A stretch of DNA of 64,000 nucleotides, taken from positions 193 through 64,192 of the forward strand of contig JBEKQV010000001.1 in the NCBI GenBank assembly GCA_049519355.1. The letters run 5' to 3'. Below, one piece after another: positions 301 through 60,161 of this stretch; position 1 is the stretch's first letter; the number at the start of each line of letters is the position of its first letter. A program made the translations under genes and the position numbers. Under the pieces are notes generated by a model, which saw only the letters and a list, made by a program, of their open reading frames with translations, was not told the DNA's origin and did not search any database. The stretch is from Candidatus Microgenomates bacterium. GTDB lineage: Bacteria > Patescibacteriota > Microgenomatia > UBA8517.

Positions 301-337
301 CCGCACCTAAAGTCTCATACTTTTCTACTTAGAGTAA

Positions 338-1021: not shown

Positions 1022-1027
1022 AATTAG

Positions 1028-2128: not shown

Positions 2129-3969
2129 TTGGAGATATTAAACTTACTCTTTATAAAATTATTATATTTTAATTCTGCCATCTTCCAGTCTTCTATGGTA
2201 TCTATATCTTGTGCAGACGAGTCTGAAATAATAATAGTACCAAAATTTTCCTCTAGTACTTTCTCATTTTTATTAAATTTATCCGTCCATGCCCAGTAAA
2301 ACTGCCCACTATCGTGATATGAAGCGGGGAAATCCTGAGATCTTTTATACATATTTCCAGGTTGAATCATTTTAATCTTCTGACTAACTATTCTATATGC
2401 TCGCTGAATTGGATAACTGTATCTAACAACGGGAATAACAGAGTCAAACTTTCCCTTTATTAATAAATCGAAAGATTTCTTAAGTAGTCCCTCGGTTATT
2501 AAAGGAGCTGTTGGATAAATACAACAAAAGATATCAAAAACCATAGAATTATTTTCATATCTTCCAAGAACTTCTTTAATTACAGACGCTGTGGTTGAAT
2601 AATCCTCAGAATTTTTTTTTGAACGGAAAAAGGGAACCTTCGCTCCATACTTTTTCGCAACTTTTGCAATCTCTTCATTGTCGGTAGATACCATAACTTC
2701 ATCAAATAACTTACTTTTGATAGCCGTTTCGATAGAATAAGCAATTATTGGCTTACCTAAAAACTTCTTAACATTTTTTTTAGGAATTCTTTTACTACCC
2801 CCTCTCGCAGGAATAATAGCTAATATCTTCCTTTTTTTTAAAAAGGAAGTAATAACTCCAATAACTTTTTGCTGTTCAGAATAACCTAGCCCAGGATAAA
2901 TAGGAATGCTAATTATTCTTTCATAAAATTCTTCCGCAATAGGACAAATGCCCTTTTTGTAACCCAACTCTTGATAATAAGGATGCCAATAAACCGGGAT
3001 ATAGTGTACTTGGCAAAAAATACCATTCTCTTTTAAACGGTTAAACAAATTTAAACGTGTTTCTTTGTCTTTAACTTTAACGATATATAGGTGATAAGCG
3101 TTTTTATACCCTTTATCGGGTTTTATTACCTGTATTTCATTTACTCCCGCAAAAGCTTCATAATATCTTTTTGCAATGGAAATTCTTTTTTCTACAAACT
3201 GATTAACTCTTCCAAGTTGACTTATTCCGAGAGCACACTGGAGATCGGTAATTCTGTAATTATAACCAAGTTCTTGCATTTCATAATACCAAGAACCTTC
3301 ATTTTGATTTATTAATTTGCCAGAGTCCTTGGTTATTCCATGAGTCCTTAAAATAAGCAATTTTTCATAAAATTCTTTTGAATTAGTTGTAATCATTCCT
3401 CCCTCTCCGGTTGTTATATGTTTGACAGGATGAAAACTAAATACAGCCATATCTGAATAAGTACAGTCACCAATCTTTGTACCTTTGTATCGCGAACCCA
3501 AGGAATGACAAGCGTCTTCTATTACAACCAACTTGTGCTTTCTCGCGATATCTTTTATTTTTTTCATATCACAAGGTAACCCACCGTAGTGGACAGGAAT
3601 TACTATTTTTGTTTTCGAAGTTATTTTTTTCTCGATCAATTTTTCATCAATAAGGCCATTTTCCTCTTTAATATCTACAAAGACGGGTCTTGCACCACAA
3701 TACAATGCACAATTTGCTGAAGCTGCAAAAGTCATTGGAGATGTAATCAACTCATCACCCTGTTTTAATCCAGCTGCAAGACACGCAAGGTGGAGAGCAG
3801 CAGTTCCGTTTGAAACCGCAACTGCGTATTTTACATTAACCAGTTTAGCAAACTTTTCTTCGAATTCCTTTATTTTTGGTCCAGTAGTTAGATATTCGGA
3901 GTTTAAAGTATCCACAACTGCTTTTATATCTGATTTACTAATTGTCTGTCTCCCATAAGGTATATTCAT
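2119..3969 (-). CDS. Bifunctional fusion in one ORF. The N-terminal domain is a DegT/DnrJ/EryC1-type PLP sugar aminotransferase (PseC/LegC-like). The C-terminal domain is a CMP-nonulosonate cytidylyltransferase (NeuA/PseF/LegF-like).
   Basis: 616 aa. The N-terminal ~380 aa carry GDELITSPMTFAASAN, DACHSLGS and SFHPVKHITTGEGG. The C-terminal ~230 aa carry ILAIIPARGGSKRIPKKNVKKFLGKPIIAYSIE, the CMP-NeuAc/CMP-KDO synthetase signature. No stop or frameshift lies between the domains. Confidence 0.75.
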   Translation of the reverse strand: MNIPYGRQTISKSDIKAVVDTLNSEYLTTGPKIKEFEEKFAKLVNVKYAVAVSNGTAALHLACLAAGLKQGDELITSPMTFAASANCALYCGARPVFVDIKEENGLIDEKLIEKKITSKTKIVIPVHYGGLPCDMKKIKDIARKHKLVVIEDACHSLGSRYKGTKIGDCTYSDMAVFSFHPVKHITTGEGGMITTNSKEFYEKLLILRTHGITKDSGKLINQNEGSWYYEMQELGYNYRITDLQCALGISQLGRVNQFVEKRISIAKRYYEAFAGVNEIQVIKPDKGYKNAYHLYIVKVKDKETRLNLFNRLKENGIFCQVHYIPVYWHPYYQELGYKKGICPIAEEFYERIISIPIYPGLGYSEQQKVIGVITSFLKKRKILAIIPARGGSKRIPKKNVKKFLGKPIIAYSIETAIKSKLFDEVMVSTDNEEIAKVAKKYGAKVPFFRSKKNSEDYSTTASVIKEVLGRYENNSMVFDIFCCIYPTAPLITEGLLKKSFDLLIKGKFDSVIPVVRYSYPIQRAYRIVSQKIKMIQPGNMYKRSQDFPASYHDSGQFYWAWTDKFNKNEKVLEENFGTIIISDSSAQDIDTIEDWKMAELKYNNFIKSKFNISKWI

Positions 3970-4979
3970 ATAACTCCAAATCTTTTAAAAATTTTGGAAA
4001 CTTCATCCTTAGAAATTACTGCATTTGCAGAACTATACTCCTGCAGTAATTTTTCATTCACAACCTTGCCCTTTTTAATATAAATAGCTTTTTTAATACC
4101 TTTGGTGTCCTGGATAGGAGAACCGATTACATAAAAATTCATAAAATTATATGTTCTAGGTATTTCAGAATTATTTATCATCAATTCATGTATTTTTTCT
4201 CCCGGTCGAATTCCGACTATCTTTATTTTATTTTTCTTATGATATTTATCTCTTAATATCTCGATTAAATCGGTTATTTTAAATGAAGGAATCTTAGGAA
4301 CAAAAATTTCTCCTCCCACTCCATATGTTATGGCATTAAATACCAACTCAACCGCCTGTTTCGGACTGATGATAAACCTCGTCATCCTGGGATCGGTTAA
4401 TGGAATATCATCATTATTTACAATTTTTTCGCTAAAGAAAGGAATTACCGAACCTGTGCTTTCCAAAACATTTCCGTATCTGACTGTGGTAAAAACCGTT
4501 TTAAGATCTCCCTTGCTATAGTTACTCTCCGTAAATATTCTTTCACTAACAAATTTGCAGGCTCCATATGTATTTACAGGTGAACAAGCTTTATCTGTTG
4601 AAATCATTACAGCCTTTTTAACGTTATTTTTAAGACATGCATTCACCACATTTAATGTACCCAAAATATTCGTTTTGATTGATTCTTCAACGTTATATTC
4701 CATAAGATCGAGTCTTTTTAATGCCGCAGCATGAATAACAATATCCACCCGTCTTGTTGCCTTAAGAAGTCTTTCGTAATCCCGGACATCGCCCAAAAAA
4801 TTTCTAATTTTTTTATTGTGGTGAAACTTTTCCTGAAATTTATAATGTTTTACTTCATCGCGACTAAAAACCCTTATACTCTTCGGGTGCTGTTTAAGAA
4901 TTTCTGAAGTTAATGCCTGCCCAAGATAACCAGTGCCTCCCGTAATTAAAACTGTTCTATTTGTAAATATATTTGCCAT
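3966..4979 (-). CDS. UDP-GlcNAc 4,6-dehydratase-like enzyme of the PseB/FlaA1/CapD Polysacc_synt_2 family
   Basis: 337 aa. RTVLITGGTGYLGQALTSEIL Rossmann motif, ...SRDEVKHYKF..., DIVIHAAALK. Length and motifs match PseB/LegB-type enzymes. Confidence 0.75.
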   Translation of the reverse strand: MANIFTNRTVLITGGTGYLGQALTSEILKQHPKSIRVFSRDEVKHYKFQEKFHHNKKIRNFLGDVRDYERLLKATRRVDIVIHAAALKRLDLMEYNVEESIKTNILGTLNVVNACLKNNVKKAVMISTDKACSPVNTYGACKFVSERIFTESNYSKGDLKTVFTTVRYGNVLESTGSVIPFFSEKIVNNDDIPLTDPRMTRFIISPKQAVELVFNAITYGVGGEIFVPKIPSFKITDLIEILRDKYHKKNKIKIVGIRPGEKIHELMINNSEIPRTYNFMNFYVIGSPIQDTKGIKKAIYIKKGKVVNEKLLQEYSSANAVISKDEVSKIFKRFGVI

Positions 4980-6286
4980 TAATTTTCAAAAGTAAAACTA
5001 TCTCTTAGAGCGGTTAGATTGTTTTTGATATTATACTCTTTTCTATATTCGAGCATGTTCTTTTTGAAAACCGCTAATTTACTTTTATATTCTGGGAAAT
5101 TTTCAATCATATCAACCATCTTTCTTACAAACGACTCCATGTTCTCACACCGGAATCCAATAGGTTTCGTTTGTTTATTAAAATAGTCATAACCCGGATT
5201 GCTAAGATGAAGAACCGGCTTAAGATATGAAAAAGATTCAAAAATCGATAGACTACAACCAAACCGATGACGATTTCTATCATATAAATTTATAAACACA
5301 TCGATATCTCGAGCAGAATCCTCCATTTCCCGTCTACTCAAAACTCTTCCCCGGCTTAACCAGGTAATATTCGCAAAACCCTCGGTACCTCTACTATCCA
5401 TGCTAATAATCCGAATTTCATAAGATCTTGTTAATTTCTTTTTAGAAAGAAGTGTTAACATCCTGTACATTTGAGCAGAATCTCCATAACCAAAAACGGC
5501 AAATTTAATAAACTTATTCTTTACAGCAGACGCCGAATTATTAAAAATAATTGGCAAAATGATTGTGTGGAAGTTCAGAAATTTGGTATTTAGATATTTA
5601 CTGGCATTTTTTGTAACATGTGGAGATAAAGAAATATATTTATACTGATTTGAATGTTGCCACATCATCATTTTCTTCACACGGAAAATTTTTTTGAAAA
5701 TAAGTGAATAATTTAAATCTAACCAACGAATTGGAACAGTCACCCTGTTAATTGCAAAGGACAACACCAGTTTCGGATCTCTAAATCCTTTAATAACCGA
5801 TTTTTTGTAGTCAGTTTTTATCATTCCTCTTCTGATTCCAGGAATATAAGCTTCTTTATAATTTTTGTTGGCGATATCTTCCAATTCACCGTGAAGAACA
5901 AAAGTGCAATTAATTTCTTTATATTTATCTTGCTGTTTCAGTTTTTTTACAAGATAAAGAATAACCGGATTCATTGATAAGAAAAAAACCTTATTTTCAT
6001 GAAAGCTTATTAATTTATCAAACATATCTTTTATCAAAAGATAGTTTTTGATAACCCCACCGAGACTATAACTTTTATTTCCACTGAAATTTATAGGAGA
6101 AAGTATTAAATCGTTGATAATAACTCCACTAACCTTAAAAATATTCTTAAGATTTCTGAAATAGTTTTTATCGGCAAAGAATATTATTTTCTCGTTTGGG
6201 TAAGCCAGCCTTAGACCATAGATAAATCCGCTATTTACTTCTTCATGGCTTATTCCTTTACATTGAAGTTCACAGATTACTATCAT
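4979..6286 (-). CDS. Hypothetical protein with a GT-B-like C-terminal half; candidate glycosyltransferase
   Basis: The ATG at 6284-6286 abuts the stop of the upstream gene; the ORF-track start at 6472 lies inside the neighbouring gene. The C-terminal region (FAVFGYGDSAQ...DIDVFINLYDRNRHRFGCSLSIFESFSYLKPVL) resembles GT-B C-domain helices. No family assignment is possible. Confidence 0.45.
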   Translation of the reverse strand: MIVICELQCKGISHEEVNSGFIYGLRLAYPNEKIIFFADKNYFRNLKNIFKVSGVIINDLILSPINFSGNKSYSLGGVIKNYLLIKDMFDKLISFHENKVFFLSMNPVILYLVKKLKQQDKYKEINCTFVLHGELEDIANKNYKEAYIPGIRRGMIKTDYKKSVIKGFRDPKLVLSFAINRVTVPIRWLDLNYSLIFKKIFRVKKMMMWQHSNQYKYISLSPHVTKNASKYLNTKFLNFHTIILPIIFNNSASAVKNKFIKFAVFGYGDSAQMYRMLTLLSKKKLTRSYEIRIISMDSRGTEGFANITWLSRGRVLSRREMEDSARDIDVFINLYDRNRHRFGCSLSIFESFSYLKPVLHLSNPGYDYFNKQTKPIGFRCENMESFVRKMVDMIENFPEYKSKLAVFKKNMLEYRKEYNIKNNLTALRDSFTFEN

Positions 6287-6287
6287 T

Positions 6288-7517
6288 CTATATAATTTCA
6301 ATTTCTGGTAATGGAAAGATAAATTTTCCACCGCTTTCAGTAAACTTTTTCTCCCTTTCCAAAATATTGTATTTAAAATGCCAAGGCAAAACAAAAAAAT
6401 AATCAGGGTTCTTTGATTTAGCAGCCTTTTCGGATATGATTGGAATATTAGTTCCAGGTGTAAACGAACCAAACTTTTCTTTGTTCACTTCCGCGATGCA
6501 AGGAATTTGTCTCGAATTTAATTCGCAAAATTGTAAAAGTACATTTCCCTTGGTACTGGCTCCATAACCAATTATCTTCTTACCGCTTTTTACCAAAGAA
6601 TTAATCAATTTCCCTAAATTTTCTCGGTGTCTAAACACTTTTTCTTCAAAATCACGGTAGGGTTTAGGTGTATCCAATCCCATATCTTTTTCCTGTTCAA
6701 GCAGCCACTTTATAACCGGCTTATTTGATACATATTGTGCTTTCTTTTTACAAGCGGTTACCGCAAAGCTGCCACCGTTTATAGAATTCATTTGGACGTC
6801 TACAATACGCATTCCGCAACTTTCCAATAGGTTTTTCACTACTTTAAAAGAATAAAATTCCAAATGCTCATGGCAAATAGTATCGTAAGCATTTGTTCTT
6901 AACATGCTGGGCATGTAACTTTGTTCAAAATGCCAAACCCCATCATTAGTAAGACATTTTTCAATATCCTGGACGAACGCTTTCGGATTTTCCAGATCGT
7001 AAAACATTGCAATCGAAGTTATTATTTTTGCTTTTGTGTTTGGGAAAGTATCTTGGAAGATTGATTCGGAAAAGAAATCTGAAATTAAAGTCATATCTTT
7101 CGCATAAAATTTCTTGAATTTCTTAGCAGTCGGGTCAATTCCAACTTTTTTATATTTTCCGGAGCAAGCTCTAAGCAGAGTTGCATCATTACTTCCAATA
7201 TCGATCATTAAATCTGTTGCTTTTGGTTTTACCAAGGTTTCAAGCATTTTCATCTTTTGTTGTAAATGCTTTACCATTGAAGAATTAAGTCCAGAGCGGT
7301 ATCCGTAGTTATCTCCGTACATTTCTTCAAGACTATATGATTGCTTCAATTGAAGAAGTCCGCATTTTGAACACCAAACAACATCCAAAGGACCTTTTGT
7401 AATTTTCTCTTTTCTTGATTTTGGAAATACTCCTGTCAGATATTGTTCTCCGAACGAAAGTACTGTAATTAAATGTGAATTTTGACAAATTCTGCACCTT
7501 TTTATCTCTGAATACAT
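6288..7517 (-). CDS. SAM-dependent C-methyltransferase with an N-terminal Zn-ribbon, TylCIII / NDP-hexose C-methyltransferase-like
   Basis: 409 aa. N-terminus CRICQNSHLITVLSFGEQYLTGVF...WCSKCGLLQL carries two CxxC pairs (a putative Zn-binding domain). Then DIGSNDATLL methyltransferase fold and the C-terminal domain typical of sugar C-methyltransferases. Confidence 0.65.
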   Translation of the reverse strand: MYSEIKRCRICQNSHLITVLSFGEQYLTGVFPKSRKEKITKGPLDVVWCSKCGLLQLKQSYSLEEMYGDNYGYRSGLNSSMVKHLQQKMKMLETLVKPKATDLMIDIGSNDATLLRACSGKYKKVGIDPTAKKFKKFYAKDMTLISDFFSESIFQDTFPNTKAKIITSIAMFYDLENPKAFVQDIEKCLTNDGVWHFEQSYMPSMLRTNAYDTICHEHLEFYSFKVVKNLLESCGMRIVDVQMNSINGGSFAVTACKKKAQYVSNKPVIKWLLEQEKDMGLDTPKPYRDFEEKVFRHRENLGKLINSLVKSGKKIIGYGASTKGNVLLQFCELNSRQIPCIAEVNKEKFGSFTPGTNIPIISEKAAKSKNPDYFFVLPWHFKYNILEREKKFTESGGKFIFPLPEIEII

Positions 7518-7519
7518 AT

Positions 7520-8329
7520 TTATTTAGGCAAGATAAGAAAATTTATTTCATTGATTACCCTCGAAAATTTATAGTTAATATCCTCAACAAAATCTATATA
7601 ATCCTGAAAATGCATGTTGTATTTATCTTGATAGATTCCTTGGAATTCAAATATTATAGGCATTTTATTTTTCTTTATTGTTTTCCGGGCTCCTTCCATA
7701 GCCTTTAAATCACCGCCTTCAATATCAATCTTCATAAAGCTTATTTGTTCTTTTATTTTTAGACCATCAATTGTGAGAGATTTCACCTTTCGACCCCTGC
7801 GTGCGATATAATCGATTCCAAAAGATCCGTAAGATTGATATTTTTTAAAATCCTGTACAGGGAAAAAAAGTGTCTTATTATTTTTATTATGGACCGCGCC
7901 AAAATGTGGAATTATTACTCCATTTTTCCCGTTAGCTTTAATATTTTTTAATAAAATTTTATATACCCAATCATCGGCCTCAAAGGAGTAAACCCTTCCT
8001 TTACCGTTTAACAATTTGGAAAACAAGACACTCATCTGACCAAAGTTGCTACCTATATCTAAAACTGAAGTTTTAGGCCTTATAAATTTTGAGGCCCATT
8101 CTACTATTTCTTTATCAAAAATCTGATTGTTTTTAATCGCTGCAGCGATTTCATCATTGATAGCATCGGTTGGTAAAAAATAGTTTCCGGTCTTAGTGCT
8201 ATAAAAAGACAACTTCTTGTTTCTTACAGAATGTGGGACATCTCCGTACTTTACTATGTCATAACCCAATTTCCTAATTGTATTTACAATTAATTTTTTC
8301 ATACCTACGAGAGATAAACTTTTTTCCAT
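7520..8329 (-). CDS. FkbM-family methyltransferase
   Basis: 269 aa. VLDIGSNFGQMSVLF and KIDIEGGDLKAMEGA, the FkbM/Methyltransf_21 hallmarks. Confidence 0.7.
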   Translation of the reverse strand: MEKSLSLVGMKKLIVNTIRKLGYDIVKYGDVPHSVRNKKLSFYSTKTGNYFLPTDAINDEIAAAIKNNQIFDKEIVEWASKFIRPKTSVLDIGSNFGQMSVLFSKLLNGKGRVYSFEADDWVYKILLKNIKANGKNGVIIPHFGAVHNKNNKTLFFPVQDFKKYQSYGSFGIDYIARRGRKVKSLTIDGLKIKEQISFMKIDIEGGDLKAMEGARKTIKKNKMPIIFEFQGIYQDKYNMHFQDYIDFVEDINYKFSRVINEINFLILPK

Positions 8330-9099
8330 TTGTTTTTGCCTAAATTATAAGATAGATGTTTAACATGCTCTTTCTGAATCCAAAAAGAATCGGCCTGCAA
8401 GCCATCTTCTTGCAACTCGTAATCAACAAGCTGAAAATCTTTTGACTTTAATAAATTATATATAGTCTCCCAAGTCTTTTGGCCTTTCCAGATCGGAGCA
8501 AATTCTGTTTCTATCTGCAGGGCTTTAACCTTCTTAATTTCTTTTCCAAATCCCTTCAGGACTTCATAAGTTAAGCCCTCCACATCTATTTTTACGAAAT
8601 CAACAGATTTTATATTATTCTTAGAAATAAAATAATCCATCCTAATAGTTTCGACTTTAATGCCAGTATATATTCCCTCATCATTGTATTTATGTACCTT
8701 CAAAGAAGAAACTCCATTATTTCTTTTAAGATCTACCGCATGAAAAATAACGTCTTTATTTATATCGGAAACTGCTAAACCATAACAATTAAAAGAGTAG
8801 TTGTTCTTAATTTTCTTATAAAGTACGGGGTGAGGTTCAAAAACATAAATATTTTTAGATTTCAAATTAAACTGGGTCCTTAGAAATTCGGCATCTTGCC
8901 CAAAATTTGCTCCAATTTCAAATATATTTTTGGGTACAAAATTTGAAAGCTGTTTAATGTAACGAACGGTTTTCAATAAATATCGTGTGCTCATTTTCGC
9001 AGCATCTAAATCCCTTTTATAAAAAATGATCTGAATCCCTGTTAAGTTGGATATTGTTTGGGTAGTTATTGTTATAAATTTATTTATATATTTTTTCAT
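8305..9099 (-). CDS. FkbM-family methyltransferase, paralog of 7520..8329
   Basis: 264 aa. IFEIGANFGQDAEFL and FVKIDVEGLTYEVLKG. Confidence 0.7.
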   Translation of the reverse strand: MKKYINKFITITTQTISNLTGIQIIFYKRDLDAAKMSTRYLLKTVRYIKQLSNFVPKNIFEIGANFGQDAEFLRTQFNLKSKNIYVFEPHPVLYKKIKNNYSFNCYGLAVSDINKDVIFHAVDLKRNNGVSSLKVHKYNDEGIYTGIKVETIRMDYFISKNNIKSVDFVKIDVEGLTYEVLKGFGKEIKKVKALQIETEFAPIWKGQKTWETIYNLLKSKDFQLVDYELQEDGLQADSFWIQKEHVKHLSYNLGKNKWKKVYLS

Positions 9100-9150
9100 G
9101 ATTATTCTTTGTATTCCTACTTGAATGACTTTTAGGACTTTTAATAGTTT

Positions 9151-10056
9151 TTAATGCAAAAAATTTGCTAATTTGCGTATGTTAATTTTTAATCGATCAA
9201 TTACTATTCCGTATTTCTTCGGCTCATCGTAATTAACAATTCCAAAACCCCGAGAGTAATTGGAATTTATTACATAACCTATATAACCTCTTGCTATGTC
9301 TTTTAGAGTAATTCCTTTTTTTAAATATTCAATGTGCTGAGATTTTTTGTAAAATAATTTAATTAACGGTTCCCTAATTTCTATAGGAATGGTCTTATCT
9401 TTTTGAAGCCACATGTTATACCACGAAAATTCATAGGGAGAAATTTTTAAAATATCTTTATAGGATTTACGTTTCGGAGTTAGGTATTTTCTATGAAAAG
9501 ATTCTAAAACTTTAGATGAAACGATCACAAATCCGTGATATGTGAGCATTCGCCTATCGTTTAATCCAACTTCTTTTTGTATTTTACGAATCAGTGTCTC
9601 CCTCTCACGCCAATAAAATTTATAATATTCAGGGTCAACTTTTAATTCATTATCTTCGACCAGAATCGTATAGGGAGTGGTCTTGTCATACATAAAATCA
9701 GATTTATAAAATTTCCTTATAAATACGCCGTCGGCATCCATACAAAAGTAGTTCTTACATAATCGCTTTTCCCAAAATGCAAGTTTAATAATTTCCTGAT
9801 TTATATACCCCAGACGTATGCCCCGAATACTATTGTCATGAACTAAGTCTTTTGTAACTGACTCGTCACTTAGTAACTTAATTTCCTTCCCTATGAACCT
9901 CTTAAAATGATTCATATCTGATTCCGGTACTACTATATATAGCGGAATGTTGTCGGCGTTGTACCTTTTATAAGTTCGAATTAGTCTTTTAACATACTCT
10001 ATATCGCCTACGTACGTCTTAAGTAAAATTACTATTGTTTCCATTTTCTCAATCAT
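9151..10056 (-). CDS. Hypothetical soluble protein, possibly a GT-A-like transferase (DxD-like CMDADGVF)
   Basis: 301 aa with no transmembrane segments. It contains only a DAD motif and no family signature I can name. Confidence 0.3.
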   Translation of the reverse strand: MIEKMETIVILLKTYVGDIEYVKRLIRTYKRYNADNIPLYIVVPESDMNHFKRFIGKEIKLLSDESVTKDLVHDNSIRGIRLGYINQEIIKLAFWEKRLCKNYFCMDADGVFIRKFYKSDFMYDKTTPYTILVEDNELKVDPEYYKFYWRERETLIRKIQKEVGLNDRRMLTYHGFVIVSSKVLESFHRKYLTPKRKSYKDILKISPYEFSWYNMWLQKDKTIPIEIREPLIKLFYKKSQHIEYLKKGITLKDIARGYIGYVINSNYSRGFGIVNYDEPKKYGIVIDRLKINIRKLANFLH

Positions 10057-11314
10057 TTTCTATAGACCATTCGTGTTCCATATACACACGACCATAGTCG
10101 GGAAGCGTAGAAACAAGAGAATGTTTCAATGTGGTTTCCAAAACATCAAAATAAAATAAATTTTCGTTGAGATAATAATATTTATCAAAAGGCTTATCTA
10201 TCCCAAGTCCTAGCCTATACCTGCCCGAACTTAGATCAAAACTATTTATCAAACATGTAACATGGTTTTCACCCTTCTTAATAGTAATATCCATTCCTTT
10301 TGTAATTTTCGTATCAGAAGAAAAAGCGTGACCATTGATATCGTCTTGAGAAATCATTAAATTAATTCCCAAACCTTTCAAATTTTCTTTGGAAAGTATT
10401 CGAATATCAATCTTTAATGGTTTCCCTGGATAAATTTTCCCATGTAAATATTCATTTATGGTTATTTGTTTAATAATCAAATTTAATTCCGAGACCTTAA
10501 TCGGGACAAATTTTTTTCTGATATCAGGTGTTTTTGTATACTTATCTATGGCAGAACCAACACTTCCTTCAAATACCTTCTGGCCTTTTTGAAGCAATAT
10601 CGCCTTATTACAAAGATTCTTTATTGCAGTCATGTTGTGACTTACAAATAATATAGTCCTACCCTCGTTTCTGGTTATTTCACCCATCTTACCTAAAGAT
10701 TTTTTTTGAAATTCGGCATCTCCAACCGCAAGCACCTCATCAACAATCAGGATCTCGGAATCAAGGTGCGCAGCCACGGCGAATGCTAAACGCATATACA
10801 TTCCTGATGAATAATGTTTAACAGGTGTATCCAAAAATTTTTCAACACCTGCAAAATTAACTATTTCGTCAAATTTTTTATTTATCTCACGTCTCTTCAT
10901 TCCCAGAATTGCACCATTAAGATAAATATTCTCCCTACCGGTTAGTTCCTGCTGAAAACCGGTCCCAACTTCAAGTAGACTCCCAACCCTACCTCTTAAT
11001 ACGGCTTCACCCCTGGTCGGTGGAGTAATTTGACTCAAAACCTTAAGAAGGGTACTTTTCCCTGAACCGTTTGGTCCAATTATTCCCAAAACATCTCCCT
11101 GGTTTAGCTTAAAAGAAATATCTTTCAGTGCCCAAAATTCACCTTTCCTCAAAACCGAAGGTCTTTTATTCTGGCTAAAAATCTGTAACGGGGTTCTTAC
11201 AATAGCTGCCAGCGTATCCCTTAAAGTGTAATATGGTTGAAATTCACCATATTTATATTTTTTTGATACGTGATTAACTTCAATTATAGATTTCATATTA
11301 AACAAGATCGGCAA
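10049..11314 (-). CDS. wzt: ABC transporter ATP-binding protein for glycan export (Wzt/TagH-type) with a C-terminal extension
   Basis: 421 aa. Walker A GIIGPNGSGKST, signature YSSGMYMRLAFA, Walker B ILIVDEVLAVGD. About 165 aa follow the nucleotide-binding domain, like the Wzt C-terminal carbohydrate-binding domain. Confidence 0.8.
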   Translation of the reverse strand: MPILFNMKSIIEVNHVSKKYKYGEFQPYYTLRDTLAAIVRTPLQIFSQNKRPSVLRKGEFWALKDISFKLNQGDVLGIIGPNGSGKSTLLKVLSQITPPTRGEAVLRGRVGSLLEVGTGFQQELTGRENIYLNGAILGMKRREINKKFDEIVNFAGVEKFLDTPVKHYSSGMYMRLAFAVAAHLDSEILIVDEVLAVGDAEFQKKSLGKMGEITRNEGRTILFVSHNMTAIKNLCNKAILLQKGQKVFEGSVGSAIDKYTKTPDIRKKFVPIKVSELNLIIKQITINEYLHGKIYPGKPLKIDIRILSKENLKGLGINLMISQDDINGHAFSSDTKITKGMDITIKKGENHVTCLINSFDLSSGRYRLGLGIDKPFDKYYYLNENLFYFDVLETTLKHSLVSTLPDYGRVYMEHEWSIEND

Positions 11315-12122
11315 AGAATCCTTCAGTAGACTTAAAATAATATATTCCGGTTATAAAAAGCAAAACAGATACAACCCCTGCAATTAAGAGTGTCTGCCAG
11401 TTCAGAATATTTCCGCCTGAAAATACAGTTCTGGCGGCTTCTATTACTCCAGTCATCGGGTTTAAAGCAATTATTTCTCTGAATGAAGGCCTCATTATAC
11501 TGGTTGGATATATTACCGGCGTTAAAAAAATCATAATTTGAATAAAAAATGGCAACGCATAACGGACATCCCTGTATTTGACATTAAAGGAAGCAAGAAA
11601 AAGACCCAAACCTTCCGCACCTAATGTGCTAATAATTAAACATAGAGGAACAATAAATAAAGTTAGTAAGCTAGGAACAAAATGGAAGTAAAAAGAAACG
11701 ATGAGTAAAAGAATCAGGGATATCCCAAAATCGACCAGGTTTGCCCCTACTGTAGAAAGAGGGAGAATTTCCCTAGGAAAATATACCTTTTTAACAACTC
11801 CTTCATTTTCGATTAAAGAATTACTCGCGCGGGATAATATTCCAGAAAAATAGTTCCAAAAAACCAAACCCGTCAAGACAAATAGTGGGTAGGGTAAATC
11901 GCCAGACGGAATTTTAGCAAAGTTTCCAAAAAAAATCGTAAAAATGAAGGTTGAGGTCAAAGGTTGGAAGACTGCCCAAGATGCCCCAAAGAGAGTCTGT
12001 TTATAACGAACTTTGATATCCCTCCAAGCAAATATCCAAAAAAGTTCACGGTATCTCCAAAGTTCTTCAATATCCAAAAGCATCCATTTCGATTTGGGTT
12101 TTATTACAGTTGTGTAACTCAT
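11298..12122 (-). CDS. wzm: ABC-2 type polysaccharide export permease (Wzm/TagG-like)
   Basis: 274 aa with six predicted transmembrane segments. It overlaps wzt by 17 nt. Confidence 0.7.
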   Translation of the reverse strand: MSYTTVIKPKSKWMLLDIEELWRYRELFWIFAWRDIKVRYKQTLFGASWAVFQPLTSTFIFTIFFGNFAKIPSGDLPYPLFVLTGLVFWNYFSGILSRASNSLIENEGVVKKVYFPREILPLSTVGANLVDFGISLILLLIVSFYFHFVPSLLTLFIVPLCLIISTLGAEGLGLFLASFNVKYRDVRYALPFFIQIMIFLTPVIYPTSIMRPSFREIIALNPMTGVIEAARTVFSGGNILNWQTLLIAGVVSVLLFITGIYYFKSTEGFFADLV

Positions 12123-12128
12123 GATTTA

Positions 12129-12908
12129 TTAACGATAATTTTTGTTAAACCTCAATATTAACCAGTCGCCTATTTTAGCAAAAAAAAATTCAAAACAGTT
12201 AAGGTACCGTCTTTTCACTTTTTCTAATGTTGTAAATGCAATCTTCTTATTATTAACGCTCGAGGTCAAAGAATCATTGCGTAACATATAATTACTAATA
12301 ATTCTATTAAAAAATTCCCAATTAGTTTTAGAGCCAATCCTCAGCCATAAATCCGTATCCATGTTTACCTTAAGAGAAGTATCAAAGCTCCCGTACTTTT
12401 CAAAGACTTCTTTTTTCATAAATACTGCCTGATGAGGAATAAAATTCACAAATTTGAGAATAAAATTACTGGAAATTTGGAATATTTTTTTCGTAGGAAA
12501 AGTCCCAATATCTTTTCCATCTTCCTCAATAACACGTATTTTTCCGTAAATCCAATCAAAGTTATTATGTTTAATCAAAAAGCGATAGGTGTTTTGTAGA
12601 ACTTTTTCGTCGTAGAAAAAATCATCACTATTTAAAAAGATAATATATTCACCCCGTGTTCTCTCAATTCCCTTATTAAAAGCAGCGGAAACCCCCTTCT
12701 TTAAAAAAGTAATTATCCTTACCCGATTATTAAATTTCTTTTTATAAGTATTTAGAATACTTTTTGTATTATCCGTAGAGCCACTATCAACAAAAATGTG
12801 CTCATAATTTTTAAATGTTTGCCTTTTTACGGAATTCAAATTATTCTCCAAAAACCTATCACTATTTAAGGTACATGTGATAATTGTAAAAAATGGTTCT
12901 GTTTTCAT
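12129..12908 (-). CDS. Family 2 glycosyltransferase (GT-A fold)
   Basis: 259 aa. FTIITCTLNSDRFLENNLNSVKRQTF...HIFVDSGSTDNT and FLNSDDFF (DxD). Confidence 0.7.
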   Translation of the reverse strand: MKTEPFFTIITCTLNSDRFLENNLNSVKRQTFKNYEHIFVDSGSTDNTKSILNTYKKKFNNRVRIITFLKKGVSAAFNKGIERTRGEYIIFLNSDDFFYDEKVLQNTYRFLIKHNNFDWIYGKIRVIEEDGKDIGTFPTKKIFQISSNFILKFVNFIPHQAVFMKKEVFEKYGSFDTSLKVNMDTDLWLRIGSKTNWEFFNRIISNYMLRNDSLTSSVNNKKIAFTTLEKVKRRYLNCFEFFFAKIGDWLILRFNKNYR

Positions 12909-12915
12909 TATGATT

Positions 12916-13746
12916 TTATTTTTTGGCTAAGTCCGCAGTATTTACTAACCTTTTAATACCCTTTTCCAAACTTATAAATTTATTGACATCCACACCCAAC
13001 CTTTGTAACCCTGATACATCAGCAATGCTCTTGAGCGGCTCGTCTCTTCGTTTAACATAGTCTATAGGTATTTGTTTGTTCATAATCTTAATAACCAAAT
13101 TAGCTAAATTTATAATTTTAGTAGGTTTTCCAATACCCAAACTAATTACGCTTCCGGATTTGATATTGAGATTAATCAGCTTTCTGGTAACATCCACGAC
13201 ATCGTCAATATAAATAAAGTCTCTACTTTGATTTCCCTTACCAAAAATTTTAATATTTTGTCCCACTTTTACTGCGTTTATAAAATTATGAATAACATAT
13301 CCGTAATCGGCCTTTTGTCCCAAGCCGTAAATATTTTCGGGGCGGACAATTACTGTCTTTATGTCTTTTGAATAAAGCTTGACAAAATTCTCACCTGATA
13401 TTTTGGACAAAGCATATGGTGTAAGTGGTTTTGCCTTAACCGCCGCAGATGAGAAAAATATTATTTTCTTGACGCCGGCTTTTACTGAATTTTGAATAAC
13501 AGACAAGGTTCCAAGCGCATTGTTAACAAAATATTCTTTGGGTTTCCTCCACGACTCTTCAGCAGAAATAAAAGCAGCCAGATGAATAACCATATCTACA
13601 CCTTTAAGTTTTTTTAGAAGTAATTTTTCATCCAAAATGTTCTGCCCATTCTTTAAATCATATCTAACAATCCTGTATTTTGGTGACAGCTTTTTGACCA
13701 AATGGCTGCCGACAAATCCGGAAGAACCAGTTATTAGTACATTCAT
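12916..13746 (-). CDS. NAD-dependent sugar epimerase/dehydratase (SDR family)
   Basis: 276 aa. N-terminus MNVLITGSSGFVGSHLVKKL, a Rossmann fold. Confidence 0.65.
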   Translation of the reverse strand: MNVLITGSSGFVGSHLVKKLSPKYRIVRYDLKNGQNILDEKLLLKKLKGVDMVIHLAAFISAEESWRKPKEYFVNNALGTLSVIQNSVKAGVKKIIFFSSAAVKAKPLTPYALSKISGENFVKLYSKDIKTVIVRPENIYGLGQKADYGYVIHNFINAVKVGQNIKIFGKGNQSRDFIYIDDVVDVTRKLINLNIKSGSVISLGIGKPTKIINLANLVIKIMNKQIPIDYVKRRDEPLKSIADVSGLQRLGVDVNKFISLEKGIKRLVNTADLAKK

Positions 13747-13786
13747 ATTCCCTGAGATTTTACCACAAATACTTCCAGCACTAGGA

Positions 13787-15304
13787 TTAGGGAGAAATCG
13801 TTCTATTTATCAGATAAACAGTCTCCTGGTCGCCATTATATATATTCTGTATAACCAAGTTCGGTTTATATTTTAAATTATCTCCTTCAAATGGTGTTCC
13901 TTGAAGAATTATATTTCCTTTGCTTGGAAGATTTATTACATTGCCCCAATCATAAAATTTTCCATTCCAAATTTCATAAAAATAACTATTCTGATACATT
14001 TGGGTGAGTTGTTTATCATACCTGTGAAACGCCAGTTCGTTCCCAAAATTAAGTGCGTACTCAATCGACGAAGAACGGTAATAAGTCACTTTTATGGCAT
14101 CCGGATAATTTTTAGCTACAAACTCATTCAACTTAATTGATTCTGCGTAATACGAAGAAACTCCATCAGTTGACTTTAATTCTTGCACGAAGTTACTTCC
14201 TGCAAAGACGATTACTAGAATACTTGCAACCGTCCGTATTTTATTATTTTTTATTAAAGACAATATTAACACTGATGAAAATCCAAGCATGGCCAAACCT
14301 GGAACTAAATAATGGTTTTCAAAGTGCTTCGCAACAATAATAATATCCGCCAGAAAGAATAATAGAAGTGCCACTAAAAATCTATTCTCAGTAAATTTAT
14401 GTTTACGTATCACAGTCCAAATAAAAACAATTGCTAATACCAGCGTTATCACAATCAGAAATTGTTCCGTAATTAAGATCGTACGAAGGCTTTGCAAAAA
14501 TAGAGGAAAATTTACAATATTCACATCTCCCGTTCCGTAAAATCCTGAGTGAATAAACAAGCTATATGTCCAGTCCAAAAACCAAGAGTATCTGTTGTAT
14601 ATCGGCAGAGTAAAGAAAATCAATGCGGCAAGTGTAGCAAAAAAATAAGCAATTTTTTCTTTCCATCTTAAAATTACCAAGGGAACAAGAACTAAAGGAG
14701 CTGAATTTATTTTTGTAGCGATGAGAAAGCCGGAAATCATTGCAATAAGAAAAATTGAAAATTTAGAATATTTTTCTCCCCTGTAAAAAATATATAGCAT
14801 AATAAATGAAAACCACGCCGTTGCCACAAGCATTAGAGGTTCAGGCGCAACATGATATAGTGTATCCATCAAGGTAAAAGATAAGAATGGAGTTGCCTGC
14901 ATAATCAGTGCGAAAAAAATATCCTCTGTCAGAAATAAAGTTAAAACACCAATCAAAAACAATGAACCTACTAGTGAAAAGATAATCAGTTGGTTTATGG
15001 CGTTTAAATAAATCTCGGGGTTATGCAAAACATCATTAATAATTGTGTCTTTCGATCTCAATTTATGAAACACCTTAATTACTCCTGCTCCCAGAACTTC
15101 TAAAGTTGTCCCCGGATGGTCAACGTATTGTACCTGCCTGAATTGGGATAAATTTAAAGAGTTTAATAGATAAACATATTCAGGGTCTGAATTTGAACCA
15201 AGCCAATAAGGTCCTTCATATCTTTTTAACGAAGCCGAAACAATTAAAATCAAAGCAGGTATGACTGTTAATAAACATATTTTAAAGAATTTTAGACGAA
15301 TCAT
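13787..15304 (-). CDS. Polytopic integral membrane protein of unknown function
   Basis: 505 aa with about 11 hydrophobic segments after an N-terminal anchor. Confidence 0.5.
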   Translation of the reverse strand: MIRLKFFKICLLTVIPALILIVSASLKRYEGPYWLGSNSDPEYVYLLNSLNLSQFRQVQYVDHPGTTLEVLGAGVIKVFHKLRSKDTIINDVLHNPEIYLNAINQLIIFSLVGSLFLIGVLTLFLTEDIFFALIMQATPFLSFTLMDTLYHVAPEPLMLVATAWFSFIMLYIFYRGEKYSKFSIFLIAMISGFLIATKINSAPLVLVPLVILRWKEKIAYFFATLAALIFFTLPIYNRYSWFLDWTYSLFIHSGFYGTGDVNIVNFPLFLQSLRTILITEQFLIVITLVLAIVFIWTVIRKHKFTENRFLVALLLFFLADIIIVAKHFENHYLVPGLAMLGFSSVLILSLIKNNKIRTVASILVIVFAGSNFVQELKSTDGVSSYYAESIKLNEFVAKNYPDAIKVTYYRSSSIEYALNFGNELAFHRYDKQLTQMYQNSYFYEIWNGKFYDWGNVINLPSKGNIILQGTPFEGDNLKYKPNLVIQNIYNGDQETVYLINRTISP

Positions 15305-15315
15305 ATTGTTTCAGG

Positions 15316-15336
15316 TATAATTGCCTCGGAAAAGAG
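15316..15336 (+). promoter_or_regulatory. Candidate -10 box (tataat) plus a ggaaaagag ribosome-binding site upstream of the only plus-strand gene in the left half
   Basis: tataat sits about 22 nt upstream of the ATG at 15344, and a purine-rich stretch sits 8 nt upstream. This is a 39-bp divergent intergenic region. Confidence 0.3.
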
Positions 15337-15343
15337 CAATCTC

Positions 15344-16423
15344 ATGAATATATTTCAGAAATATTACCACAAAGACTTACAAAAAGTTTATCGAAAGTTT
15401 AACGGAATAATTTTGGATAATGTTATCGATGACATTCCTGACTTACAAAATTACTTCGAAGACTTACATAAAAAAGTCAACCATAATACGAGGATATTAA
15501 TTACATATCACAATCCACTTTGGGAACCAGTTTTAACACTCGCTTCAAAAATGGATTTAAGAAAAAGGGTTGGTATCCAAAACTGGCTTGACGAGGACGA
15601 TTTAAGAAATATTTTGAATCTTTCAGGGTTTGAAATAATAAACACACAAAAAAGATTTTTTGGAATTACCACAATTACTATAGCGAAATCCAGACCGAAC
15701 GATTCAAAAGTAAAAAAAGATTATCGCGTTTCTATTATTATCGCAGCGAGAAACGAGGAGGGGAATATTCTGAAAATTATTCCTTCCATTCCTAAATTTG
15801 GTATGTCACAGGAAATAATTTTTATTGAAGGCCACTCTAAAGATAAAACATGGGAGAAAATCTCTCGTCTCCGCAAAAATTACGGCAAATTAATCAAGAT
15901 AAAGTCCTTCAAACAGAAGGGCCGCGGAAAAGCTGACGCAGTCAAATTAGGCCTATCAAAAGCAACTGGAGATATTTTGATGATATATGACGCCGATAGA
16001 ACTGTTGATGCAAAAGATCTAAAAAAATTTTATAGAGTTTTAGCATCAGGCCTTGGAGAGTTTGCAAACGGTAGCCGTTTGGTTTACCCGATGGAAAAGG
16101 ATGCAATGCAAACATTGAATAAGATCGGAAATCAAATATTCAGTAAACTTTTTACCTGGATCCTAGGTCAGAGATTTAAGGATACACTTTGCGGAACAAA
16201 AGCCTTCTGGAAAAAGGACTACGTCAAATTCAAACATACAAAAACCGATCCTTTTGGAGATTTTGATCTAATCTTCGGAGCAATTAGAAATAATCTGAAA
16301 GTGACTGAAATTCCGGTTAGATATAAAGAGAGAGTGTACGGTTCCACAAACATAAATAGGTTCCGACATGGACTTCTTCTTGCAAAAATGGCATTTTTTG
16401 GCTTCCTGGAGTTCAAAATTTAA
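15344..16423 (+). CDS. Family 2 glycosyltransferase with an N-terminal methyltransferase-remnant domain
   Basis: 359 aa. The C-terminal ~240 aa form a GT2 fold (VSIIIAARNEEGNIL...MIYDADRT). The N-terminal ~115 aa (DDIPDLQNYFEDL...TYHNPLWEPVLTLASKMDLRKRVG) align to the C-terminal half of the neighbouring methyltransferase (DVIEHLENPVETF...NPIWEPVLMVAEKLRLKMPEG). They lack the GxGxG SAM motif. Confidence 0.65.
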   Translation: MNIFQKYYHKDLQKVYRKFNGIILDNVIDDIPDLQNYFEDLHKKVNHNTRILITYHNPLWEPVLTLASKMDLRKRVGIQNWLDEDDLRNILNLSGFEIINTQKRFFGITTITIAKSRPNDSKVKKDYRVSIIIAARNEEGNILKIIPSIPKFGMSQEIIFIEGHSKDKTWEKISRLRKNYGKLIKIKSFKQKGRGKADAVKLGLSKATGDILMIYDADRTVDAKDLKKFYRVLASGLGEFANGSRLVYPMEKDAMQTLNKIGNQIFSKLFTWILGQRFKDTLCGTKAFWKKDYVKFKHTKTDPFGDFDLIFGAIRNNLKVTEIPVRYKERVYGSTNINRFRHGLLLAKMAFFGFLEFKI

Positions 16424-59243: not shown

Positions 59244-59244
59244 T

Positions 59245-60141: not shown

Positions 60142-60161
60142 AAGCTCAATTGTAGCACTAA

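Follow-up and report, generated by a model that had tools for sequence, protein, structure and literature searches.

The ABC-transporter locus in our window (the whole stretch of 64,000 nucleotides analyzed) from Candidatus Microgenomates (Patescibacteria/CPR) is best explained as an ABC-transporter-dependent operon for the assembly and export of a surface glycan, and the C-terminus of its Wzt ATPase is, as judged from a structural model, a genuine Wzt carbohydrate-binding domain (CBD). We propose that export of the finished glycan is gated by a cap, with the chain terminus made by a DUF6492 protein and FkbM methyltransferases and read by the Wzt CBD, a proposal towards which we lean slightly and for which we infer both the cap chemistry and the cap-making enzyme. 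Specifically, a polyprenol-linked glycan, probably containing a pseudaminic/legionaminic-type nonulosonic acid and a 3-C-methyl branched sugar, would be built in the cytoplasm until a terminal structure is made and chain growth stops. Our best guess for this terminus is a residue from the DUF6492 protein that would be O-methylated by one or both FkbM proteins. The dimeric C-terminal CBD of Wzt would then bind the terminus, and Wzm-Wzt would translocate finished chains only. The host lineage is monoderm-like and presumably lacks lipid A.

The genes named in the first-pass annotation (a Zn-ribbon C-methyltransferase, two FkbM genes, a 421-aa wzt, and wzm) are all present at the coordinates it gave, on the minus strand. 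Because the genes are read toward lower coordinates, the methyltransferases, which had been placed upstream of wzm-wzt, in fact lie downstream. Nor are they directly beside wzt as described, since wzt is separated from the first FkbM gene by the gene for a 301-aa DUF6492 protein. Neighboring genes overlap or are at most 51 nt apart. Identical proteins were found on independent contigs, and the gene order is kept in other Patescibacteria loci (L003-L005, L159, and L160) with orthologs of 50-80% identity, which argues that the genes are real and not chance open reading frames. A 497-aa open reading frame overlapping the C-methyltransferase was rejected as an artifact of the ORF listing; the called gene encodes 435 aa, with its ATG at 6286. 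In the direction of transcription, the genes from the upstream flank to the C-methyltransferase are:

13787-15304, minus strand: 505-aa open reading frame without a Pfam match, upstream of wzm; its hydrophobic sequence suggests a putative polytopic GT-C-like membrane protein
12916-13746, minus strand: SDR epimerase/reductase, upstream of wzm (Epimerase, 2e-38)
12129-12908, minus strand: GT2 glycosyltransferase, just upstream of wzm (Glycos_transf_2, 2.7e-29)
11298-12122, minus strand: wzm, ABC-2 permease, 274 aa (PF01061 ABC2_membrane, 1.2e-23; NF050109 Wzm/RfbD, 1e-21)
10049-11314, minus strand: wzt, 421 aa (ABC_tran at residues 63-194, 5e-23)
10508-11314, minus strand: nucleotide-binding domain (NBD) and hinge/linker of Wzt, residues 1 to about 269 (ABC_tran, 5e-23)
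10049-10507, minus strand: 'type A' CBD of Wzt, residues about 270-421 plus the stop codon (AF2 model and Foldseek)
9151-10056, minus strand: DUF6492 protein, 301 aa, absent from the first-pass annotation (PF20102, 6.6e-9)
8305-9099, minus strand: FkbM 'a', 264 aa (PF05050, 9e-20; TIGR01444, 2.7e-21)
7520-8329, minus strand: FkbM 'b', 269 aa (PF05050, 5e-18; TIGR01444, 1e-21)
6288-7517, minus strand: Zn-ribbon NDP-sugar 3-C-methyltransferase, 409 aa (Methyltransf_13, 2.7e-17; Methyltransf_14, 1.2e-53; Methyltransf_23)

The wzm gene, whose orthologs in related loci are 70-80% identical, overlaps the start of wzt by 17 nt. Among PDB sequences, Wzt best matches its Aquifex aeolicus counterpart (8dku/7k2t, 4e-68; alignment up to residue 391), and a sequence profile extends across the Aquifex CBD (8dku, 8e-100, to residue 377). 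Beyond the NBD we found a C-terminal domain of about 160 residues, close to the roughly 165 aa originally described. Structure prediction for residues ~256-421 yielded a confident, all-beta sandwich (AlphaFold AF2 model, pLDDT 87.1, pTM 0.81), and its best structural matches are exclusively Wzt CBDs, which occupy ranks 1-17 of the Foldseek search against the PDB (Aquifex 8dky, 7e-9; Klebsiella O12 5hno, 9e-8; E. coli O9a 2r5o, 1.7e-6). A lower-confidence loop ahead of the last strand fits the C-terminal strand swap described in CBD dimers (PMC9445017). Given this fold and the profile alignment through the Aquifex CBD, export that depends on recognition of the chain terminus is a sensible and well-supported reading. 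The type-A CBD forms a discrete subtype (237-255 bits on its own HMM versus at most 30 bits for all other CBDs), and the Wzt NBD is 70-80% identical among relatives whereas the C-terminus is replaced, a serotype-like pattern that would be expected for a specificity module.

We regard it as very improbable that the domain is a structural remnant, or otherwise unrelated to substrate selection, and that export is not cap-gated. CBD-less Wzt proteins do occur in near-identical operons (L087 and L092), and the Pfam Wzt_C score of 22.8 bits is under the 30.4-bit threshold, both of which would fit such a remnant. However, the model shows a well-folded domain, and 27 type-A sequences share 45 positions with a conservation of 85% or more, including Y366, Y380, Y407, H414, and W416. 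Moreover, every characterized CBD-bearing Wzt needs its CBD (PMC9445017), and by extension from these we infer that the CBD gates export here as well.

The Zn-ribbon enzyme, with its CxxC...CxxC motif (C8, C11, C49, and C52), matches TylC3 (4rv9, 1.4e-47), TcaB9 (7e-43), and KijD1 (2e-40) over its full length. As a full-length homolog of NDP-4-keto-sugar 3-C-methyltransferases, it modifies a nucleotide-sugar precursor and does not terminate chains, and this homology led us to reject it as a WbdD-type capping enzyme. It also accompanies other CBD types and one CBD-less Wzt, so the methyltransferase 'trio' does not hold as a single functional unit. The two FkbM proteins are small and single-domain (264 and 269 aa), with neither kinase nor coiled-coil extensions. 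Without a kinase, and with no room for a coiled-coil ruler, they are not WbdD-like. Of the original idea of cap-dependent ABC export, the part supported by the predicted CBD fold therefore survives, whereas the C-methyltransferase and FkbM proteins as WbdD-type cappers do not.

The DUF6492 gene overlaps the stop codon of wzt by 8 nt. Its product is a putative glycosyltransferase on the strength of a DxD-like motif (D107 invariant, D109 at least 90% conserved; CMDADG in the window, CMDSDG in the family consensus), and a candidate for the transferase of the cap residue. Among related Patescibacteria loci, it is present in 6 out of 8 with a type-A CBD, 0 out of 14 with another CBD, and 1 out of 7 without a CBD (type-A versus other CBDs, Fisher p = 4e-4, a statistic that ignores shared ancestry). 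In all six type-A loci with DUF6492, the next gene encodes an FkbM 'a' ortholog, as in L005 (61%) and L159 (54.5%), or an FkbM-like protein of 284-294 aa, while the CBD-less locus with DUF6492 (L087) has no FkbM or FkbM-like methyltransferase. Counting against our proposal, FkbM 'b' orthologs adjoin wzt genes of other CBD types (L006, L030, and L046), and the CBD-less locus L158 has an FkbM gene. Across the related Patescibacteria loci, it is DUF6492, and not FkbM genes in general, that co-varies with the type-A CBD. The methyltransferases also differ among type-A loci: L003 instead carries a 594-aa protein whose C-terminus holds a Methyltransf_23 domain, and in L078 the 10 kb downstream contain neither methyltransferase, C-methyltransferase, nor DUF6492 genes. 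In favor of our proposal, 12 out of 40 CBD-bearing loci across phyla have FkbM genes downstream of wzt and only 1 out of 40 has them upstream. CBD presence showed no significant association with a downstream methyltransferase of any kind (odds ratio 1.5-3.9; p = 0.25-0.7; only eight CBD-less loci). The residues of the Aquifex methyl pocket are replaced in the aligned CBD (T346 by G, A348 by G, H350 by D, and W362 by L), which counts against a methyl cap.

Alternatively, the CBD might read a non-methyl feature, such as the sugar that the DUF6492 protein would place at the chain end, with all three methyltransferases decorating precursors or internal residues and having no role in termination or export. 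The co-variation of the CBD subtype with DUF6492 and not FkbM, the precursor role of the C-methyltransferase, the non-significant methyltransferase association, and the unconserved methyl pocket all favor this alternative. We nevertheless consider it unlikely, given that an FkbM or FkbM-like gene immediately follows DUF6492 in every type-A locus that has it and is absent from CBD-less L087, that FkbM genes are strongly biased to just downstream of wzt, and that L087 shows DUF6492 can work without a CBD.

Downstream of the C-methyltransferase, the minus strand continues with a glycosyltransferase and a nonulosonic-acid pathway:

4979-6286, minus strand: GT-B-fold glycosyltransferase, 435 aa (AF2 model, pLDDT 88.9; Foldseek matches to generic GT-B enzymes, 1e-9 to 1e-7)
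338-4979, minus strand: nonulosonic-acid (pseudaminic/legionaminic-like) pathway, whole block
3966-4979, minus strand: PseB-like dehydratase (Polysacc_synt_2, 3e-94)
2119-3969, minus strand: aminotransferase-cytidylyltransferase fusion, PseC-PseF (DegT, 7.5e-122; CTP_transf_3, 2e-29)
1028-2128, minus strand: NeuB synthase (NeuB, 4.5e-77)
338-1021, minus strand: class I methyltransferase (Methyltransf_25, 1.4e-12)

The 435-aa protein has no Pfam match and no PDB sequence match, is kept in most related loci, and is a novel glycosyltransferase from a family without a Pfam model. These genes raise a doubtful second alternative, that the cap is itself a Pse/Leg-type residue at the chain end, perhaps added by the GT-B protein, with the FkbM and C-methyl modifications as decorations and the CBD recognizing it much as Klebsiella O12/Raoultella Wzt recognizes terminal beta-Kdo. 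In line with this, PseB/PseC-PseF/NeuB and the GT-B gene are conserved in most type-A loci with a recovered downstream flank; L078, which lacks the methyltransferases and DUF6492, still has a split GT-B open reading frame along with genes resembling PseB and NeuB; the second-ranked structural match is a CBD that binds a Kdo cap (5hno); and the GT-B fold is confident. However, pathway and GT-B gene also occur with other CBD subtypes (L006 and L007) and in CBD-less L087, and the pathway alone beside CBD-less Wzt in L092, L094, and L156-L158, so that these genes do not track the CBD. Moreover, the matches to the GT-B fold are of a generic kind, and their top 50 include neither sialyl- nor Kdo-transferases.

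Compared with known systems, our preferred reading of a DUF6492/FkbM-made terminus read by the CBD is closest in its transporter to Aquifex WzmWzt (7k2t, 8dku, and 8dky), which provides the best Wzt sequence match and the best CBD fold match (TMt 0.74) and has the same NBD, hinge/linker, and beta-sandwich CBD with Wzm adjoining. In Aquifex, the cap recognized by the CBD is a 3-O-methyl sugar (PMC9445017), but the two CBDs are only about 20% identical, the four pocket residues differ, and the host here is a CPR bacterium without evident LPS whose glycan differs in chemistry, with a predicted nonulosonic acid and C-methyl sugar. In E. coli O9a/O8, WbdD terminates the chain with a methyl-containing cap, and the C-terminal module of Wzt reads this cap (PMC3482155). 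This cap-and-read logic is shared, and the CBD fold match to 2r5o is significant, but the methyltransferases here are two stand-alone FkbM-family proteins of 264 and 269 aa that lack the additional parts of WbdD. P. aeruginosa CPA, which is made by a Wzm/Wzt system, likewise comes with a pair of small, separate methyltransferases, PA5457 and PA5459; they lack the WbdD interaction domains and are partly redundant, and knocking out both abolishes the polymer (PMC3560663). That bacterium, compared here by description, is Gram-negative with LPS, and its enzymes are described as resembling WbdD(O8), not FkbM. Klebsiella pneumoniae O12/Raoultella terrigena Wzt shares the CBD fold and shows that an (n)ulosonic acid can serve as the cap, and our locus has a nonulosonic-acid pathway beside it; however, we found no WbbB-like GT99 terminator here, and no co-variation links the nonulosonic-acid genes to the CBD.

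The first-pass annotation had called a CBD-bearing Wzt alongside a Wzx flippase and GT-C machinery unusual, a label that we do not consider justified. The window does contain many GT-C/PMT_2 genes and one such flippase:

51445-52950: Wzx-type flippase, MOP family (Polysacc_synt_3, 6e-54)

This gene is about 40 kb from the ABC locus inside a very large GT-C array, and a comparable locus has already been published: that of Citrobacter youngae O1, which combines a Wzt-CBM, a WbdD-like terminator, a MATE flippase, and GT-C (PMC11127046). Cap-dependent ABC export, flippase, and GT-C post-export glycosylation are joined there in one locus, whereas any connection of Wzx with the ABC locus in our window is putative. 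A precedent without an outer membrane, comparable to our monoderm-like host, is the S-layer glycan operon wzm-wzt-wsaE of the Gram-positive Geobacillus stearothermophilus, in which Wzt is predicted to recognize a 2-O-methyl-rhamnose cap before a membrane transferase moves the glycan to protein (PMC2943079). Export is likewise ABC-dependent, and the methyltransferase gene directly follows wzt with overlapping codons; unlike here, where the enzymes are separate with DUF6492 in between, the methyltransferase in WsaE is fused to two rhamnosyltransferase domains. Given a Wzt ATPase with a genuine end-of-chain reader domain and adjoining tailoring enzymes, we regard the locus as a known mechanism in an unfamiliar organism, a tiny uncultured Microgenomates (CPR) bacterium, and not as a new type of system.

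All genes between 338 and 15304 of the window lie on the minus strand, and transcription runs from high to low coordinates through the following features:

13787-15304, minus strand: open reading frame read from the sequence as a polytopic membrane protein (505 aa), no Pfam match
12916-13746, minus strand: SDR protein (276 aa), Epimerase
12129-12908, minus strand: GT2 glycosyltransferase (259 aa), Glycos_transf_2
11298-12122, minus strand: wzm, exporter permease (274 aa), ABC2_membrane (PF01061, 1.2e-23), overlapping wzt by 17 nt
10049-11314, minus strand: wzt, exporter ATPase (421 aa), ABC_tran (5e-23)
9151-10056, minus strand: DUF6492 protein (301 aa), PF20102
8305-9099, minus strand: FkbM-a methyltransferase (264 aa), PF05050
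7520-8329, minus strand: FkbM-b methyltransferase (269 aa), PF05050
6288-7517, minus strand: Zn-ribbon C-methyltransferase (409 aa), Methyltransf_13/14
4979-6286, minus strand: GT-B protein (435 aa), no Pfam match
3966-4979, minus strand: PseB-like dehydratase (337 aa), Polysacc_synt_2
2119-3969, minus strand: aminotransferase-cytidylyltransferase fusion (616 aa), DegT and CTP_transf_3
1028-2128, minus strand: NeuB-type synthase (366 aa), NeuB
338-1021, minus strand: class I methyltransferase (227 aa), Methyltransf_25

Since neighbouring genes either overlap or are separated by at most 51 nt, the block reads as a single operon; a promoter and terminator scan of positions 1-17000 gave a signal no stronger than in shuffled sequence. 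All genes named in the first-pass annotation are present, but the DUF6492 gene had been overlooked. The methyltransferases, described there as lying directly upstream of wzt, are in fact downstream of it, given the strand, and are separated from it by the DUF6492 gene. An upstream TTG start codon accounts for an artefactual 497-aa open reading frame overlapping the C-methyltransferase gene. The 616-aa fusion joins a DegT/PseC-type aminotransferase to a CTP_transf_3 cytidylyltransferase (PseF/NeuA-like); among the related wzt loci that we collected for comparison (numbered with the prefix L), the two activities are encoded separately in L003 and L156 and fused in L007 and L092. The product of the sole plus-strand gene of the cluster (15344-16423, 359 aa) combines an incomplete Methyltransf_23 region with a GT2 domain, and the position of such a gene opposite the wzt strand is kept in L003, L007, and L157. 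Independent contigs, the longest of 846 kb, encode Wzt of identical sequence, and close relatives of this protein belong to Pacebacteria, Magasanikbacteria, and other Patescibacteria, with a single close relative (Pacebacteria RIFOXYA1) in a scan of a genome collection.

The nucleotide-binding domain (NBD) of Wzt is of the Wzt/TagH type, with PDB matches to Aquifex Wzt (4e-68), TarH (5e-52), and mycobacterial RfbE (1.4e-43). Full-length Wzt aligns to the Aquifex protein as far as residue 391 (4e-68), and its family profile extends through the Aquifex carbohydrate-binding domain (CBD; 8e-100). We modelled residues 250-421 as a monomer with AF2, using 52 homologues, and obtained a short helix, a flexible linker, and then ten beta strands (mean pLDDT 87.1, pTM 0.81). 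When this model was compared to the PDB with Foldseek, ranks 1-17 were exclusively Wzt CBDs, and the first unrelated fold appeared at 2e-4. The top match was the 3-O-methyl-mannose-bound domain of Aquifex aeolicus (8dky; 7e-9, TM 0.74 on the target), and further matches included the domains from Klebsiella O12/Raoultella (5hno, Kdo cap; 9e-8) and E. coli O9a (2r5o; 1.7e-6). The carbohydrate-binding module that the first-pass annotation had proposed is thus borne out by the model, the Foldseek ranks, and the Aquifex profile alignment, and the region that it had allowed might be disordered or non-carbohydrate-binding is modelled as an ordered beta-sandwich with Wzt CBD matches. The Pfam family Wzt_C (PF14524) matched residues 294-394 below its gathering score (22.8 vs 30.4 bits, E = 1e-4); this model is too narrow for the CBD subtype of the window, which we call type A, and is overridden by the fold and profile evidence. 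Many relatives are 70-80% identical across the NBD alone, their C-termini being similar in length but unrelated, as would be expected of a substrate-specificity module. As modelled and aligned here, the C-terminus of Wzt is a beta-sandwich (jelly-roll) CBD homologous to the solved Wzt CBDs. The model, in which the last strand follows a loop of lower confidence, would also be compatible with a CBD dimer with exchanged C-terminal strands. We consider it probable that the domain is a functional reader of the glycan terminus; a non-functional CBD is unlikely, given that the domain is conserved.

Type-A CBDs score 237-255 bits against the type-A HMM, and all other CBDs in 131 loci score at most 30 bits. 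Within type A, 45 positions are at least 85% conserved, including several aromatic residues near or in the last strand (Y366, Y380, Y407, H414, and W416). A single-sequence search with the CBD alone returned 20 cluster representatives among 1.84 billion, a number from which clustering by full-length identity probably hides members, and which we take as no more than an approximate indication of a narrow subtype. A 411-aa Wzt from another locus (L161 P0023), about 39-43% identical to that of the window in its C-terminal region, was grouped with type A by identity and not by HMM score; its gene has those of an outer-membrane Toluene_X protein and of lectin-like proteins as neighbours, and genes for glycan synthesis are absent from its vicinity. 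Given this locus, the type-A group may reach beyond Patescibacteria. In the Aquifex CBD, the methyl group of the cap (the structure at the non-reducing end of the glycan) is held in a pocket of L300, T346, A348, and W362, beside a trap loop (PMC9445017). According to an HMM alignment at about 20% identity, uncertain by 1-2 residues, these positions correspond in the window Wzt to M, G, G, and L, respectively, with H350 replaced by D. The Aquifex pocket is therefore not conserved, and we rejected reading the cap chemistry off the pocket residues.

The three methyltransferases had been presented as one unit, from which the Zn-ribbon enzyme has to be removed. It contains Methyltransf_13 and Methyltransf_14 domains and Zn-ribbon cysteines (C8, C11, C49, and C52), and matches over its full length TylC3 (4rv9, 1.4e-47, residues 5-408), TcaB9 (3ndi, 7e-43), and KijD1 (5t64, 2e-40). 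The family of TylC3, a D-mycarose 3-C-methyltransferase, C-methylates NDP-4-keto-sugars, and the product of a PseB-type dehydratase is an intermediate of the NDP-4-keto-sugar type. This homology, the family chemistry, and the nearby PseB-type dehydratase together indicate that the C-methyltransferase acts in the precursor pathway and does not terminate the polymer. No other neighbour is as constant as this enzyme, which is present at 76-80% identity after wzt genes with a type-A CBD, with other CBDs (L006 and L007), and with no CBD (L087), and hence regardless of the CBD. The two FkbM proteins score above the curated cut-offs of both PF05050 (72.0 and 66.2 bits, cut-off 22.7) and TIGR01444 (76.5 and 78.0 bits, cut-off 37.7). 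Both are single-domain proteins, with the FkbM domain at residues 61-224 and 91-255 and only 60-90 residues preceding it, and PDB sequence searches with both gave no useful match and no solved relative. Family-model searches found no kinase match in either protein or in any neighbouring gene. A terminator of the type of WbdD, the E. coli O9a/O8 capping enzyme to which they had been likened, does not fit proteins of 264 and 269 aa that are without a kinase and have no room for a coiled-coil extension. Relatives of FkbM-b (46-56% identity) and other family members occur just downstream of wzt in many phyla, and among CBD-bearing loci with both flanks, FkbM genes lie downstream of wzt in 12 out of 40 and upstream in 1 out of 40. 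As far as genomic context can tell, this strong bias suggests that they are enzymes of glycan loci and not small-molecule tailoring enzymes.

To compare gene content across loci, we gathered 161 loci via contig look-ups and two collection scans, and annotated them with our own ORF/phmmer pipeline. Among 70 distinct loci (8 of them CBD-less), we observed no significant association between the presence of a CBD and that of any methyltransferase within 8 kb downstream (odds ratio 1.5-3.9, p 0.25-0.7). Neither did we find a clean co-variation of FkbM with CBD subtype; orthologues of FkbM-b accompany other CBD types in three loci (L006, L030, and L046), and an FkbM gene is also present in the CBD-less L158. 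What co-varies with the type-A CBD is DUF6492, and not FkbM. The DUF6492 gene is present in 6 out of 8 type-A loci, in none of the 14 Patescibacteria loci with other CBDs, and in 1 out of 7 CBD-less loci (Fisher's test, p = 4e-4 vs other CBDs and 0.04 vs CBD-less, uncorrected for phylogeny). In all six DUF6492-bearing type-A loci, the next gene encodes either an FkbM-a orthologue (the window, L005, and L159) or an FkbM-like protein of 284-294 aa (L004, L080, and L160) that has the motifs DxGAADGY and CDIEGxEFELF and matches Pfam FkbM only at E = 0.03. The type-A locus L003, without DUF6492, instead encodes a 594-aa protein whose C-terminal part is a Methyltransf_23 domain, and L078 is an exception, with no DUF6492, FkbM-type, or other methyltransferase gene within 10 kb downstream. 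An FkbM-type gene is absent from L087, the sole CBD-less locus with DUF6492. This natural variant (311-4615) encodes a 260-aa Wzt, followed by DUF6492, the C-methyltransferase, the GT-B protein, and Pse genes, and is a useful comparator for cap gating. In another Patescibacteria locus (L084, 11398-14175), a wzt gene with a different CBD is directly followed by a gene for a 925-aa fusion of a pyruvate-kinase-like barrel, a PUA domain, an ATP sulfurylase, and an APS kinase, which jointly amount to PAPS synthesis; this fusion hints at a sulfated terminus for the CBD type of that locus.

DUF6492 proteins carry a DxD-like CMD(A/S)DG motif, in which one Asp is invariant and one nearly invariant. PDB sequence searches with a single sequence and with a profile found no relation, and a Pfam scan of 32 members at E up to 10 found no second family. 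Proteins 64-66% identical to that of the window occur in Methanococcoides methylutens, Methanomethylovorans, and Methanolobus profundi, and one match is labelled Clostridiaceae; this cross-domain identity suggests a recent inter-domain transfer of the module. For the 435-aa GT-B protein, there is neither a Pfam model nor a sequence relative in the PDB, and a word-indexed homologue search returned only 146 relatives, of which some carry the labels Methanoperedens and Methanolobus (44-45% identity). The predicted structure of the protein (pLDDT 88.9), with Foldseek matches to GT-B folds at 1e-9 to 1e-7, identifies it as a member of an unclassified glycosyltransferase family. The presence of this conserved protein together with a nonulosonic-acid pathway could mean that the cap is a nonulosonic acid, as a counterpart to the Kdo cap. 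The occurrence of the pathway and of the GT-B protein does not, however, depend on the type or presence of the CBD, and we regard such a cap as unlikely.

We instead favour, if by a modest degree of confidence, a cap that is made by DUF6492 and FkbM, is read by the CBD, and is followed by export. A nonulosonic acid and a 3-C-methyl sugar would be among the precursors from which the lipid-linked glycan is built in the cytoplasm, and a terminal structure would then be placed on the non-reducing end of the glycan. Our best guess for this terminus is a residue added by DUF6492 and O-methylated by FkbM-a, with FkbM-b either adding a second methyl group or being redundant with FkbM-a. A dimer of Wzt CBDs would bind the capped end, and Wzm-Wzt would move the finished chain across. 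That the cap includes a methyl group made by FkbM is a nearly balanced question, on which we are slightly hesitant. The CBD might also read the DUF6492-added sugar itself or another non-methyl feature, with methylation merely a decoration, which we think rather improbable. Returning to the DUF6492/FkbM cap, a bolder and doubtful version holds that the type-A CBD reads a new cap (a DUF6492-added, FkbM-methylated sugar) as part of a termination-export module exchanged between CPR bacteria and methanogenic archaea. If this were true, Patescibacteria would have their first defined system of cap-gated ABC glycan export, and DUF6492 would be a chain-terminating glycosyltransferase.

The mechanism as such is textbook knowledge; what is new is the host lineage, the candidate role of DUF6492, and the narrow CBD subtype, which scores below the Pfam threshold. 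Our literature search found no paper pairing Patescibacteria with Wzt and none naming DUF6492, and there is to our knowledge no experimental information on the surface glycans of CPR/Patescibacteria. As the window illustrates, these bacteria, whose way of life is attachment to host cells, reserve a large share of their tiny genomes for glycosyltransferases. With a classic finish-cap-export checkpoint in CPR, a soluble CBD would be a possible probe for the terminal sugar. The list of candidate cap enzymes is short (DUF6492, FkbM-a, and FkbM-b), and natural variants are available for comparison (CBD-less loci, other CBD types, and the sulfate-activation fusion). These findings are of value for annotation and because they offer DUF6492 a function that can be tested; they do not add a new principle.

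Further along the window, positions 24212-62410 hold a mostly co-directional array of roughly twenty membrane proteins of 490-690 aa, most of which match PMT_2, PMT, STT3, or PTPS_related (GT-C), together with one MOP flippase and GT2/GT4 genes at 57521-60908. For a genome of probably less than 1 Mb (the largest contigs carrying these genes are about 0.85 Mb), such an outlay on extracytoplasmic glycosylation is striking. The flippase is of the Wzx type (51445-52950) and lies within this array, about 40 kb from wzt. There are well-documented cases of ABC-dependent glycans that undergo further modification through a polyprenyl-phosphate-sugar synthase, a flippase, and a GT-C enzyme. A candidate three-component set is found just upstream, consisting of a GT2 protein (18207-18896), a DUF2304 protein (17849-18187), and the 505-aa putative membrane protein. 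One published locus with such modification combines a CBM-bearing Wzt with a WbdD-like terminator (PMC11127046). The co-occurrence of the Wzt module with a flippase and GT-C enzymes, which the first-pass annotation had called unusual, is thus ordinary. Three systems are the closest functional precedents for the proposed mechanism: the CBD of Aquifex reads a methyl cap (PMC9445017); the P. aeruginosa CPA system depends jointly on two small methyltransferases that lack WbdD domains (PMC3560663); and the wzm-wzt-wsaE operon for the S-layer glycan of Geobacillus provides a Gram-positive precedent (PMC2943079).
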